Source of the DNA: an uncultured Verrucomicrobiae bacterium
GTDB taxonomy: Bacteria > Verrucomicrobiota > Verrucomicrobiia > Chthoniobacterales > Chthoniobacteraceae
Assembly (NCBI GenBank): GCA_963836755.1
Contig: CAWIKF010000002.1
Coordinates: 1,376,001 to 1,440,000, forward strand
Length of the DNA: 64,000 nt
Reading direction: 5' to 3'
The notes below the pieces were generated by a model that saw only the letters and a list, made by a program, of their open reading frames with translations, did not search any database and was not told the DNA's origin. Positions 13,297 through 55,335 of the stretch are shown in pieces (the stretch's first letter is position 1; each line of letters begins with the position of its first letter). The position numbers were made by a program, and so were the translations under genes.

Positions 13297-13370
13297 TGCC
13301 CCGTGGTGTAATGGTAGCACAGCAGATTTTGATTCTGCTTGTCTAGGTTCGAGTCCTGGCGGGGCAGCCA
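13297..13370 (+). tRNA. tRNA-Gln (anticodon TTG), CCA encoded
   Basis: tgccccg/cggggca acceptor, gcaga-ttTTGat-tctgc anticodon arm, GGTTCGAGTCC. Confidence 0.96.
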
Positions 13371-39706: not shown

Positions 39707-39771
39707 GCGGCGTCATATCAATCCGGCCGCCGGATGGCCAGCCCACAGCCCCACTATTTTTCGGAAAAAAG

Positions 39772-39844
39772 TGGAGGTAAGGGGATTCGAACCCCTGGCC
39801 TCTTCATTGCGAACGAAGCGCTCTACCAACTGAGCTATACCCCC
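39772..39844 (-). tRNA. tRNA-Ala (anticodon CGC), CCA not encoded
   Basis: GGGGGTA/TACCTCC acceptor with G3:U70; cttcg-ttCGCaa-tgaag; GGTTCGAATCC. Confidence 0.96.
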
Positions 39845-50778: not shown

Positions 50779-50800
50779 CTCACCCGACGCAACCCAATAC

Positions 50801-50918
50801 GCCTAACCATGCGATGCAGCTAACAGGCTCCGCGCGTCACGGTAGCTGCTCCCCGCAGACCCGCCACGGCAGCTACCGCGCCGCGCTCCGCCTGTAGCTG
50901 ATCTTGTTCTCGTTAGGC
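50801..50918 (+). repeat. attC site 1
   Basis: GCCTAAC...GTTAGGC, 118 bp imperfect palindrome. Confidence 0.92.
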
Positions 50919-50923
50919 ACCTA

Positions 50924-51598
50924 ATGCACGTTCCACCACATGCGAATCGGACGCCGGAACAAATCGTCGATGGCAAACGACTCTTCGATTCTGCGTGGCA
51001 TTTTTGGCAGGCGCTTTCTTGGTTCGACCACGCCAAACGCAAGACCAACATTACAGCCCTCCAATATGCCGCCCTCGAACTTCGCCTCGGCATCGAACAC
51101 CTCTGGTTCGACATCATCGTTACTGCTGTCGGCGGCAAATTGGACATCCGTGAGTATTCCCGCTGCAAGGGCGACTCCACCAAGATGTATAAGGTTCTCG
51201 ACCGCCTTTCCCCCGACCAAGCGAAACTCGTTCGCTTCACCAATATCTCTGGATCGCTCGACCCCAATCAACCGCCGCTCATCGAATGGGACATCCCACG
51301 GCTCAAACGACTTCACGGAGAGACTTCCCAGTATCTGCACTTTCTTGGCATCCCCCCCGAAACCACCGACAGCCCCAAATGGTTTGTCGCGGCGCTCACG
51401 CTACTTGAGACAGGCGCGGATTACATTTGGCACCACCTTACGACCGCCCGCACGGGCCAACTCAACATCGACTCGATGCCACCCGAGGTTCGAAATACTT
51501 GGGAGGCTTTTCGAGTCGGTCAGCTCGACGAGGATTCAGTCCGCACTCGACTGCAACTCGCTCAACCCGTTCTCCGCAAGCGAAGGCGCGGCGCCTAA
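50924..51598 (+). CDS. Cassette 2: hypothetical helical protein
   Basis: Fills the space between attC1 and attC2; stop codon inside GCCTAAC. Confidence 0.85.
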   Translation: MHVPPHANRTPEQIVDGKRLFDSAWHFWQALSWFDHAKRKTNITALQYAALELRLGIEHLWFDIIVTAVGGKLDIREYSRCKGDSTKMYKVLDRLSPDQAKLVRFTNISGSLDPNQPPLIEWDIPRLKRLHGETSQYLHFLGIPPETTDSPKWFVAALTLLETGADYIWHHLTTARTGQLNIDSMPPEVRNTWEAFRVGQLDEDSVRTRLQLAQPVLRKRRRGA

Positions 51599-51715
51599 CC
51601 ATGCGCTGCAGCGAACCGCTCCGGGCGTCACGGTAGCTGCTTCCAGCCACCGCCTTTCCCCACCATGCAGCTACCGCGCCGCCCTCCGCAGTCGCTGAGC
51701 TTGGGGTCGTTAGGC
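51593..51715 (+). repeat. attC site 2
   Basis: GCCTAAC...GTTAGGC, 123 bp. Confidence 0.92.
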
Positions 51716-51735
51716 GGTGCTCGCGCCATCTGCTA

Positions 51736-52269
51736 ATGCAACGAACGTTCTACGCAACTGCTGATGACCTTCTTCCCGTCTTCGAGCGCGTCGAGAAGCG
51801 ACACAGCCTCGCCTACACGCTTCGTGGCCTTTTCGAGTCACCCACGCTCACAACCGTCATGTCTGGCGCTGCCATTCCCACCCTTCACGCGCCTGCTCCG
51901 ATGTCGAGCGCATCGGGCTGCCATCACTATCTTGCCACTCCGTCCACTGCCTCAGTCCATCTTCGCGAGGTGCCACAGGTCCGCGGCGGCATCCGATACA
52001 CGTTCGATCAGGCTACTACGCCGGATAGCGTCGAGGTTACGCCGGGCGGTTTTTATCGTCCCGACGTGTTGCTCTATGGTCGGGTCGCCACCATTTCGAC
52101 CACCGTGTTCTCCAAGCAGGTGTATCGCGCATTCGCGTCCGCCATCGCAGCTCAGTTTGTTCGCATCCGCGCGTTCTATGTCGGCCCGCAGGCGGCAGAG
52201 TTATTCCATCGCGGCTGCCGTCTTACTATCGGCGCAGACTCACCAACAGAATACGATTTGGCCGCATGA
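51736..52269 (+). CDS. Cassette 3: hypothetical protein
   Basis: 177-aa ORF bounded by attC2 and attC3. Confidence 0.85.
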   Translation: MQRTFYATADDLLPVFERVEKRHSLAYTLRGLFESPTLTTVMSGAAIPTLHAPAPMSSASGCHHYLATPSTASVHLREVPQVRGGIRYTFDQATTPDSVEVTPGGFYRPDVLLYGRVATISTTVFSKQVYRAFASAIAAQFVRIRAFYVGPQAAELFHRGCRLTIGADSPTEYDLAA

Positions 52270-52285
52270 GCAATCAGACCGCAAC

Positions 52286-52403
52286 GCCTAACAATGCGCT
52301 GCAGCGAACTGTTCCGGGCCGTCACGCCTGCTGCTCCCGGCAGAGCCCACCGCGCAGCAGTCATGCCGTCCCTCCGCAGTCGCTGAGCTTGGAGGCGTTA
52401 GGC
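52286..52403 (+). repeat. attC site 3
   Basis: GCCTAAC...GTTAGGC, 118 bp. Confidence 0.92.
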
Positions 52404-52423
52404 GTCGCTCGCCGCTCGTGCTA

Positions 52424-52915
52424 ATGAACATCGAAATCCGACAAGCCGAGGTTCGAGATACCGAGCGAGTTTCGAGCGTTCTTATCGAGGCAGCGGATTG
52501 GCTTCGAGAGCGCGGCATTCCGATGTGGCGCGCTGACGAGTTAGCTCCAGACCGCATTACCTCCGACGTTGTCCGTGGAGACTTCTTTGTTGCGGAGTCT
52601 GGCGACGAGATTGCAGGCACCGTGAAGTTCCAGCTACAGGACGACCTCTTTTGGCCGGACACTTCCGCAGACGAGGCAGCTTTTATCCATCGCCTCGCAG
52701 TGCGGCGTTCATACGCTGGCGGACACATTTCCGGCGCGCTGCTACGGTGGGCGACAGACCGGGCACGCAGTTACCATCGGCGCTATCTCCGTCTCGACTG
52801 CGAGGCATCGCGGCCTCGACTCAGGGCGGTTTACGAGCGATTCGGATTCCGCCATCACAGCGACCGACAGGTCGGGCCATACTTGGTCGCCCGCTACGAA
52901 CACGAACTTCAATGA
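52424..52915 (+). CDS. Cassette 4: GNAT acetyltransferase
   Basis: FIHRLAVRRSYAGG, LRLDC, YERFGF. Confidence 0.9.
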   Translation: MNIEIRQAEVRDTERVSSVLIEAADWLRERGIPMWRADELAPDRITSDVVRGDFFVAESGDEIAGTVKFQLQDDLFWPDTSADEAAFIHRLAVRRSYAGGHISGALLRWATDRARSYHRRYLRLDCEASRPRLRAVYERFGFRHHSDRQVGPYLVARYEHELQ

Positions 52916-52928
52916 CTCCAACCGCAAC

Positions 52929-52978
52929 GCCTAACCATGCGCTGCAGCGACGGCTGCGGCTGTCACGCTGGCTGCTCC
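52929..52978 (+). repeat. attC site 4, left arm only
   Basis: gcctaaccatgcgctgcagcga...gtcacgctggctgctcc; homology stops abruptly. Confidence 0.88.
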
Positions 52979-53087
52979 TGTAACCACGCGAAATTATTGA
53001 AAAGGGTCGGAATGTGCGGCCTTGGTTCGTTATGAAAAGGGTGCGCGTCACGTCAAGTAAAAGGGTCATAACACCGCCGAAAGTAAC

Positions 53088-53275
53088 GATGGCGGCCGGT
53101 CCGCGGAGACTCCGCGAGGCGTTCGCGGGAATAGCAGCGACTTCGAACCGCAAGCGGTTTATCCTCACTTGCGAGCGTTGCCCTTTCGCTTAGCCTTTTA
53201 ACTGCCGCGAGGGAGCCGGCAGTGGCTATTCCTTCAACGCCGGCCGGTGTGACTGATCCCGCACGTCCGGCCATT
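53088..53275. ncRNA. Candidate structured RNA
   Basis: At least six nested helices in a region with no credible ORF. Confidence 0.5.
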
Positions 53276-53278
53276 TCT

Positions 53279-53719
53279 TTACGAGTTCAGAAAAGCCCAG
53301 AGCGCCTGCAAAAATGCGCGTCCGGCGTCGTCGGGATGCTGGCTTACGCCTGCGCAAATTCCGCCGTCAGGCAGGTGCGACCCAAATGTCACGAGGAAGT
53401 CGTCGTCAAACGTCGGCTGCGTGCCTTCATGCGCGGCGATGATCGTGCCGCCTGCATCCGTCGTCTCCGGCACTTCGACGGGCGTCGAGCCGCTGACGTG
53501 AGCATTCTGCAACCAGTCGATGATGATCGGGAAATCCACTATCTGCGGCGATGGTGCCCATGCTTGCAGCCCGGCGACCATCTGCGGCCACGCCGTTTGC
53601 AGTTCCGTAGGCAGATCGGCGACAGCGACCGCGCGCGAGCGGTTGATCCCGTCGATGGTTTGATATGCCGCTGCGCTTTGACAGTTGGCGGCTATGAAAA
53701 TTTGTCGTGTCGTCTTCAT
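53279..53719 (-). CDS. Phage hypothetical protein downstream of tail fibre
   Basis: ATGA overlap with upstream gene. Confidence 0.75.
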   Translation of the reverse strand: MKTTRQIFIAANCQSAAAYQTIDGINRSRAVAVADLPTELQTAWPQMVAGLQAWAPSPQIVDFPIIIDWLQNAHVSGSTPVEVPETTDAGGTIIAAHEGTQPTFDDDFLVTFGSHLPDGGICAGVSQHPDDAGRAFLQALWAFLNS

Positions 53720-55335
53720 GGAACTTTTTGGAAAAAGATGAACGAACTTTTCCGCAGATAGACCGGGTTCGCCGCGTCAGTGGCCGAGCGCTGGGCAACT
53801 TGAAAATGAATCGTCGTCGATGAGCTGAAGACGAGCATCCCTTGCGAGACATCCAGAGCTGTCTTCTTAGGCGCGTCCGCAAATGGCTGGACGGCATATT
53901 GAGCCAAACTCGCTCCATAACGGAAATAAGTCGTCGCCAGCGAGGGATTGGCCGAAGCGGAGCCATTGTCCTGCGTCGTCGAGTTATAGATTTGGAAAAA
54001 ATAATCCGAGTCCGAGCATTCCGTCGTGAGACTTAGGAGCGTGTTTATTCCACCGGTCGTCGATGCGGTGTCCGCATGCACAATGCCGTAAAAACGATAA
54101 GTGCCTGCCGGCAGTGTGACAGTGTCGGTGCCGTCAACAAATGTCGTCGAGTTCGCCGAGAAATCAGCGCTGATGATCAGTTTGTAAAACACGCCAACCC
54201 GAGCATCGAGCTGCGCAGTCGTGATGAGATCGCTGCTCGCGGGCGTGACGCCGACTTGGTTGGGAGCCGTATTATGAGTGCCGCTCGCTACAATGTTTCC
54301 ACTCGCCGCGACGGGACCGTTGAGGTTGATCGTGCCGGTGCCGTTCGGCGACAAATTGATGTTGCCGTTGTTCCCGGTAGAGAGCGTGAAATTCCCGCTC
54401 GAATCGAACGCGCCCTGGATCGTCTTCGATCGGACCGTGGTGCCATCGCTGTCGATCTCGATCCAGTGGTTGTTGACGGCGACCATCTGCGAGTTCGCGA
54501 CGATCGTGCCGGCAGCCGCGTCCACCTTGCGGATCAAGCATTGAAAATTCGTGCCGAGATTTGCGGCCGTGTCGAGCGTGACGACGATGGAACTTGTCCC
54601 CGTGGTGACGTCGAAAACCGTTCCGCAATCAGCGGCCGCGACGGAGAAATTCGCCGACTTCGCGACATGCTTTGAAAACGGAGTTTTGAGATTCGTTCGA
54701 ACGGTCGCGACGTTGGAAAAATCGCTTCCGTTGTTGCTGGTGATGACGAGATTTGTCGGACTCGTGAACGCGGAAATCTGGCCGGCCGCGCCAATCGTGA
54801 CCGAGCCGTTGCCCACCGAAAAGGTGCCACTGAACGCCGTGTTGCTCACGTTGGAAAGACCGACTTTCGTTTTGCTCAAAGTCAGCCACGCGGGATCTGA
54901 ATAGCTGCCGGTGGAGACGACGAGGTTCGTCGGATTGGTAAACGCGGAAACCTGCCCGGCCCCGCCGATCGTGATGGAGCCGTTGCCTGCCGAATAGGTG
55001 CCGCTGAATGCGGTGTTGCTGACGTGTTCGAGACTGACCTGGCTCGCGCTCAAATTCCAGAGCCCGCTGCCGTCGCCAGCGACGCCGCTGAAAGTCACCC
55101 AGTCGCCACTTGGAGCGTTGCCGAGCGTGAGCTGCGTGTTACCGAGATCGAGAGAACCGGAGTTATTCGCGACCGCGTTAAGCTGGTCATTGGAAAGGAG
55201 CAAGCCGTTCGCACTTCCGAAAGTCGCGGCGTCCACCGGGCCTTTGATGAGGCCAGTGCCATCGACAGTGAGCGTCTTCGTCTGCGCCATCGCACAGACC
55301 GGAAGCAAAAGAAGAAAAAGTAATCGTTTAAACAT
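53716..55335 (-). CDS. Putative tail fibre/adhesin with signal peptide
   Basis: G/S/T/N-rich; duplicated 37-aa unit; MFKRLLFLLLLPVCAMA leader. Confidence 0.7.
   Translation of the reverse strand: MFKRLLFLLLLPVCAMAQTKTLTVDGTGLIKGPVDAATFGSANGLLLSNDQLNAVANNSGSLDLGNTQLTLGNAPSGDWVTFSGVAGDGSGLWNLSASQVSLEHVSNTAFSGTYSAGNGSITIGGAGQVSAFTNPTNLVVSTGSYSDPAWLTLSKTKVGLSNVSNTAFSGTFSVGNGSVTIGAAGQISAFTSPTNLVITSNNGSDFSNVATVRTNLKTPFSKHVAKSANFSVAAADCGTVFDVTTGTSSIVVTLDTAANLGTNFQCLIRKVDAAAGTIVANSQMVAVNNHWIEIDSDGTTVRSKTIQGAFDSSGNFTLSTGNNGNINLSPNGTGTINLNGPVAASGNIVASGTHNTAPNQVGVTPASSDLITTAQLDARVGVFYKLIISADFSANSTTFVDGTDTVTLPAGTYRFYGIVHADTASTTGGINTLLSLTTECSDSDYFFQIYNSTTQDNGSASANPSLATTYFRYGASLAQYAVQPFADAPKKTALDVSQGMLVFSSSTTIHFQVAQRSATDAANPVYLRKSSFIFFQKVP

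Follow-up and report, generated by a model that had tools for sequence, protein, structure and literature searches.

Does the short intergenic stretch at one end of a Mu-like prophage encode an RNA, and if so, how long is it, on which strand does it lie and what might it do? A preliminary description of this locus, which lies in the 64,000-nt stretch of DNA analyzed here (the window; G000:C2:1376001–1440000), had proposed a densely structured ~190-nt non-coding element, a new phage ncRNA with two kissing loops and its strand left unresolved. Comparative analysis predicts that the actual feature is a ~77-nt RNA (53204–53280) on the + strand, antisense to the late genes of the prophage. The proposal of a new phage ncRNA is supported for this smaller object, with the strand now resolved as +, and fails for the 190-nt unit, its fold and its kissing pair. 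Judged by its 14 members, this appears to be a real, previously uncatalogued family of small structured RNAs, smaller and differently folded than first proposed.

The prophage end and the predicted RNA gene

The prophage is ~39.4 kb long and is called Mu-like because of its gene set, in which the transposase genes were recognized by eye. It is inserted within one repeat of an integron-type cassette array with many related repeats (window 50790–52978 and G000:C2 1468424–1480500); the left half of the interrupted repeat runs up to 52978 and the right half begins at G000:C2 ~1468424, and a short CTCC flanks the prophage on both sides within the repeat. The genes rightwards from 53279 lie on the − strand and are phage late genes, with matches to major head, head–tail adaptor and tape measure proteins, so the earlier placement of the element, at the prophage end and following the last late gene, is correct. 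The features of this end are:

52928–52978, + strand: left half of a repeat, split by the prophage, that from its form we take to be integron attC-like
52979–53067, no strand: prophage end, where the repeat (G/T)AAAAGGGT occurs three times, at 52999, 53034 and 53058, as probable transposase sites
53053–53274, − strand: 73-aa ORF overlapping the RNA, judged not to be a gene
53088–53168, no strand: non-conserved upstream DNA with chance-level folding (z +0.88/+0.34) and a near-palindrome, AACCGCAAGCGGTT, at 53146–53159
53169–53174, + strand: predicted −35 box, TTGCGA
53191–53196, + strand: predicted −10 box, TAGCCT, with the start expected at 53202–53204
53204–53240, + strand: hairpin 1, with basal GC/GC, main stem GAGGGA (53209–53214) with TCCTTC (53230–53235), 3-nt bulge TAT (53227–53229), top stem GCC/GGC and loop L1 GGCAGT (53218–53223)
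53242–53272, + strand: hairpin 2, with GGCCGG/CCGGCC, TGTG (53248–53251) with CGCA (53260–53263), bulge CGT and loop L2 ACTGATCC (53252–53259)
53218–53259, + strand: kissing pseudoknot, CAGT (53220–53223) with ACTG (53252–53255)
53273–53280, + strand: U-tract (ATTTCTTT), the predicted intrinsic terminator tail
53279–53719, − strand: last late gene (146 aa), convergent with the RNA

The 146-aa late gene has no PHROG or Pfam match, and a single homolog (91%) was found among 33 candidates of similar length. A module made up of the tail-fiber genes, the 146-aa gene and the RNA is present at 80–88% identity in two unlike prophages of the same genome (window 53197–55164 and G000:C2 1848507–1846436), and by this comparison it is a swapped cassette. 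At the far end of the prophage (G000:C2 1463944–1468301), a portal-like gene and the genes preceding it lie on the + strand (labels assigned by eye), and the remaining head and tail genes lie on the − strand at the RNA-bearing end; the opposite-strand block could be either an unusual split map or an inversion. Elsewhere in the window there are genes for tRNA-Gln(TTG) (13297–13370, + strand) and tRNA-Ala(CGC) (39771–39844, − strand), and a simple repeat scan of the genome found no CRISPR array.

The complementary words on which the ~190-nt element had been founded are present (ggcgtt 53118/aacgcc 53236, ggaatagc 53128/gctattcc 53225, aaccgc 53146/gcggtt 53154, actgccg 53201/cggcagt 53217 and ggccgg 53242/ccggcc 53267), and the helices cgcgga/tccgcg and agcga/tcgct both occur in the MFE fold of the 188-nt stretch. 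Of these seven helices, the conserved structure retains ggccgg/ccggcc alone. The stretch as a whole folds at chance level rather than densely, with no excess stability over shuffles on the + strand (z = −0.97; 34/200 shuffles as stable) or the − strand (z = −1.44; 17/200). Positions 53088–53200 alone give z +0.13 and −0.38, and the 5′ 110 nt of the element is not conserved. Pairing between the 5′ and 3′ halves is marginal in the window copy (as a duplex, 52/300 shuffles; by local alignment, where the complement is 14 bp, 24/1000) and failed both tests in the nine other members examined (best p ~0.06); it would also break the conserved hairpin 1. A functional unit consisting of the entire 190-nt fold, or of a structure at the DNA level, is thus very improbable: the 14-bp complement speaks for the former, and it is not kept in other members, has chance-level energy and lies upstream of the predicted start. 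Against a DNA-level structure, G·U pairs exceed A·C mismatches by 16 to 1 on the + strand of the window among 10 members, a count that is partly biased in that the registers of hairpin 2 were chosen by pairing.

The 5′ half of the stretch is mostly predicted promoter and upstream DNA. The predicted σ70-like promoter spans 53169–53196 and follows the pattern YTGnnn-16/17-YAnnnT, which is found 17–22 nt ahead of the top stem of hairpin 1 in 12/13 members and at 1.2% of random genome positions; the pattern was derived from the six members found first, and 7/7 found later also showed it. The 14th member has TTGCAA-16-CATGAC, off the pattern by one letter. A generic promoter scan (cut-off 9 of 12) missed the promoter of the window copy. 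The two 93%-identical copies in this genome diverge exactly at the −10 box, and the boxes are kept in both. The loops CAAG and CTTG, previously suggested to kiss, both precede the predicted start, and the latter shares bases with the −35 box. The near-palindrome AACCGCAAGCGGTT, a 14-mer that occurs once in the genome, is a possible operator; an inverted CGCAAG/CTTGCG pair overlaps the −35 box here (window 53146–53175), and together they could constitute a putative operator for the promoter of the RNA. The upstream half was also considered as a second, divergent copy of the RNA and set aside as unproven, with 3.2 bits against the family model and an alignment p of ~0.02 in 1/10 tested, in a test of low power (a true divergent pair in G128 gave only p 0.06–0.10).

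At the other end of the gene, hairpin 2 probably doubles as the terminator hairpin. The U-tract begins 1–3 nt past it, and the 12 nt that follow contain 5–7 T in 8/13 members (clear) and 3–4 T in the other five (weak), a weakness that speaks against a stand-alone gene with its own terminator. In the paralog at G000:C2 1827610–1827735, the −35 box shares bases with the opening codons of the gene for the terminase large subunit, and an alternative AACGGC/GCCGTT hairpin precedes a delayed U-tract; this hairpin could make that copy switch-like.

The 73-aa ORF on the opposite strand, whose conservation as a protein would have told against an RNA, is not conserved. Neither PHROG nor Pfam has a match to it, its frame is shifted by a 1-nt indel in L2 in the 93%-identical copy, and in other related copies the start is missing or the frame is shifted. 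The frame is open in G036 because there the RNA gene sits, antisense, in the open N-terminal extension of a protease ORF. Comparison of the copies thus shows no conserved peptide from the RNA locus. A role as the antitoxin of a type I toxin–antitoxin system was rejected, as the small peptide ORF on the opposite strand is not conserved (frameshifts and missing starts among the copies).

Fold, loop pairing and family membership

In a DNA search, the second copy in the same genome (93% identity) covers only 53197 onwards, and among 61 relatives three more strong matches were likewise confined to the 3′ part, so that this part is what is conserved. Covariance models, in three rounds, together with pattern scans gave a family of 14 members in six genomes and one metagenome contig. 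Besides the window copy, the same genome carries C2:1848420–502 and C2:1827610–694, and the others are two in G036, one in G021, four in G128, two in G015, one in G343 and one on metagenome contig L045; a degenerate-looking copy in G054 (L182) was kept apart. With the last model, 9/151 genomes of the bacterial family matched at E ≤ 0.05, of which members were accepted in 4/150 other genomes and four were dropped on inspection. The order sample gave 1/150 accepted and four others that matched (two dropped, one degenerate), and with an earlier model, R2, the phylum sample gave 0/150 other genomes. Because the wide RNA searches score only ~30 candidates per genome, members are under-counted, and the family is probably larger than 14. 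The weak model hits L050–L054, L014, L124, L125 and L160–L163 were dropped after inspection, and L166–L168 (E 0.44–0.97) were dropped on score.

Pattern scans recovered three real stretches out of four in GTDB and one out of four in metagenomes, and pattern searches of 151 and 401 genomes added nothing beyond chance hits and members already known. No match came from INPHARED phages or PLSDB plasmids; in IMG/VR, two protein look-ups were empty and six DNA patterns gave 0, 18, 48, 7, 5 and 0 stretches, among which there were no members. The earlier statement that the element matches no known RNA family was borne out for Rfam 15, in which the window at gathering score yielded only two tRNAs, positions 52900–53400 at E ≤ 10 yielded no match, and five loci with eight other members at E ≤ 5 yielded none.

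All members share two bulged hairpins with kissing loops. Hairpin 1 consists of a ~6-bp main stem, a bulge of 3 nt whose last base is U, a top stem of 3 bp and the 6-nt L1, and hairpin 2 has ~10 bp, a 2–3 nt bulge and L2. A plain MAFFT alignment of 10 members, not fitted to structure, gave the same nested fold in RNAalifold, with double changes in 14/21 pairs. When 13 members are aligned to the model, 96.6% of 324 cells are paired and double changes occur in 20/25 pairs (6/6 in the main stem of hairpin 1), values that 0/500 shuffles reach and that compare with 36–51% for slid partners; these counts ignore relatedness among the members, and the nested structure was used in fitting alignments A6 and A7. 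The covariation anticipated for the element is thus present, in its 3′ part.

The kiss is absent from every model and therefore provides an independent test. Its 4-bp core is paired in 52/52 cells in 13 members, with double changes at two of the four pairs: one is U–A in eight, U·G in two and C–G in three, and another, G–C, becomes U–A in G128c. The loops of G128c (GACAUU/AAUGUC) pair fully with each other and with the loops of no other member (10 tested), and the 14th member has AGCAGC/GCUGUU. In the window copy the kiss is extendable by GG with TC across a bulged A. These comparisons show that two bulged hairpins with a loop–loop kiss of 4–6 bp are conserved. With the pseudoknot left out, the MFE of the RNA does not stand out from shuffles (z −1.08). 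A structural descriptor gave five hits in the whole of G000, the three members and two without the promoter pattern, and none in two shuffles of its main contig.

This topology bears on catalysis, which had been among the roles first suggested. A compact, pseudoknotted RNA within phage DNA would suit a self-cleaving ribozyme with a new fold. HDV-like ribozymes have a nested double pseudoknot with P1.1 and a catalytic C in J4/2, and HDV-like or theta ribozymes were rejected because the covarying helices give kissing hairpins instead. With this helix order, no visible core of the familiar hammerhead, twister or pistol types and no Rfam match, a ribozyme is hardly to be expected. An RNA with its own predicted promoter and terminator also has nothing to be cut out of, and section 20 of PMC5737381 contains a like argument.

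Invariant letters cluster at the kissing junction (the top G–C pair, CA/UG and the bulge U). The kiss, top stem and bulge U could thus form a small-molecule pocket and the RNA act as an aptamer-like sponge, for example for an immune signal nucleotide; this has a small chance of being right, as the RNA is not in 5′ leaders, few of the invariant bases are unpaired and the neighboring genes give no clue to a ligand. Mimicry of a tRNA anticodon by L2, whose invariant UG fits U33–G34, was rejected because the loop lacks the purine that follows the triplet, as well as the stem geometry.

Genomic neighborhoods and proposed role

The hosts of related loci are among Spartobacteria and Chthoniobacteraceae. 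Five of the 14 members are antisense in late operons, two of them after tail-fiber modules, one just upstream of the terminase large subunit gene (Pfam gpA) and two between a Mu portal–PBECR2 fusion and the protease. Such placements, including that in the G036 protease ORF extension, would fit a cis-antisense silencer, in which the RNA or convergent transcription damps leaky late operon expression and the kiss only stabilizes. This explanation is unlikely: it does not need a conserved tertiary pairing, the overlap in the window is limited to the 3′ flank of the last gene, most of the DNA occupied by the four copies in G128 is non-coding, and those of G021, G015 and G343 overlap no called opposite gene of a known family. 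In L039:522–3900 and L041:1252–4486 the Mu portal is fused to a PBECR2-like nuclease domain, and the portal and protease have many TAN/SAN tripeptides, which are possibly maturation cleavage sites.

The RNA is patchy among related phages: of the 11 loci that have a homologous protease gene of the Mu type, two carry it, and it was not found at the other nine. The G021 copy lies behind an integrase gene, near restriction–modification-like genes and tRNA-Ser. G128 has four copies of mixed orientation within 800 nt (G128:C178 1502–2285), each having a promoter pattern and a loop pair of its own; two of them converge and the other two stand back to back, and the satellite-like element also has an HNH-like gene and an HTH_17 gene next to them. 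Tandem repeats (~75 bp) lie upstream of the metagenome member (L045:63–316). The G015 (two) and G343 (one) copies are in variable regions lacking evident phage genes or mobile elements, which speaks against a mobile cargo. A same-strand gene close behind the RNA is absent in 11/14; one lies a few hundred bases downstream of G128c and G015a, and L045 is ambiguous. A riboswitch was rejected on the ground that the RNA is not in the 5′ leader of a same-strand gene. By its distribution, the RNA is accessory cargo of dormant phages and other variable DNA in one bacterial order.

A moron is an optional accessory phage gene, and the predicted σ70 promoter, the terminator and the patchy occurrence are features of that type. 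The sequence 53204–53280 would accordingly be a stand-alone small RNA gene transcribed from a housekeeping-type promoter, whose ~77-nt product would fold as the two bulged hairpins locked by the kiss, with the second hairpin and the U-tract forming the terminator. Mobile elements would carry it as optional cargo, akin to a moron made of RNA, and would express it during dormancy, presumably in the lysogen; the RNA may then bind a host protein, or one belonging to a competing element, as a decoy or inhibitor. We place the probability of a trans-acting, protein-binding, shape-based RNA in host–element or rival conflict at about 40%. Action through three-dimensional shape is most likely because selection keeps the pairing and not the loop letters; that loop pairing, arm lengths and a few junction bases are kept and loop letters are not argues against a base-pairing regulator. 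A target search with three members found scattered exact complements of 10–12 nt in the two G000 prophages, none of which stands out; it set aside the paralog's own antisense strand and would miss split short targets. Against a protein-binding role in conflict, the neighborhoods have no protein family in common. It may tentatively be suggested that the kissing-loop RNAs of this order's phages and satellites are shape-based factors for counter-defense or competition, acting as decoy, sponge or ring; the side-by-side loop variants of G128 would then represent different specificities.

The family is small and synthesis-friendly, has unusually clear loop–loop covariation and comes from a little-studied phylum. 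If it acts by shape on a protein of the host or of a rival, it would represent a conflict factor made of RNA alone, with a fold not in Rfam, and its size allows direct in vitro tests of folding, oligomer state, cleavage and antitermination.

Comparison with known RNAs

In the SRP Alu domain and the lysine riboswitch, two adjacent helices are closed by an intramolecular kiss of 5–6 bp; compared with these, the kissing RNA is without the closing helix, multiway junction, UGU turn and kink-turn G·A pairs. It is like the P1/P7 C4 and P4 CI immunity RNAs in being a short structured RNA of temperate phages and satellites. Those RNAs pair with target sites in their own element, whereas the loops of the kissing RNA are used on each other and no target stood out in the two G000 prophages. 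The C4 RNA is RF01695 (PMC2864571).

Like the φ29 pRNA, which pairs its loops intermolecularly over 4 nt (PMC12084888), the kissing RNA is a phage RNA with two mutually complementary loops. Intermolecular pairing could produce rings that act on the packaging motor or on another protein assembly; each gene has its own complementary loop pair, and three members lie among terminase, portal and protease genes. Such an oligomer is improbable, as the φ29 pRNA is described as having a three-way junction and being needed for packaging (PMC12084888), whereas this RNA consists of just two hairpins and is an optional component: it was not found at 9/11 related head loci and occurs in elements lacking packaging genes, and the conserved arm lengths fit intramolecular closure equally well.

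The HK022 putRNA is likewise a promoter-proximal phage RNA of ~73 nt with two stem-loops and a one-base joint (PMC9378689), a junction that is longer in some members of the present family. The put RNA binds the β′ zinc domain and suppresses termination. A put-like nascent RNA would bind RNA polymerase and alter pausing or termination downstream of its own promoter, and the divergent promoter–RNA pairs in G128 would be compatible with this. As described in PMC9378689, however, put has a triplex in stem I and no pseudoknot, acts at least 21 nt downstream, at a pause 21 nt beyond stem II, and works for early genes on its own strand. The kissing RNA has a loop–loop kiss, an immediate U-tract 1–3 nt after hairpin 2 and mostly no gene behind it, and read-through would go antisense or into non-coding DNA in 11/14, so that a put-like action has little likelihood.

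No description of the motif was found in the literature searched, which consisted mainly of listings and the openings of abstracts, and an earlier listing as a candidate in the supplement of PMC5737381 is possible. Five short motif words were unmatched in six supplement files of PMC10690425, and a listing in its remaining three is possible. The nearest class, as described in PMC5737381, is that of orphan motifs with 3′ terminators. DUF3800-I, drum and FuFi-1, together with skipping-rope, have, likewise, a complex fold and their own terminator and are rarely in 5′ leaders; three of them go with one protein family, whereas none was found for the kissing RNA. Unless a function can be assigned to it, the kissing RNA counts as a further orphan motif. 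It differs from those four in that its predicted terminator hairpin carries a kissing loop, and if it works by shape it would be among the few natural RNAs in which the terminator hairpin is half of the tertiary structure.
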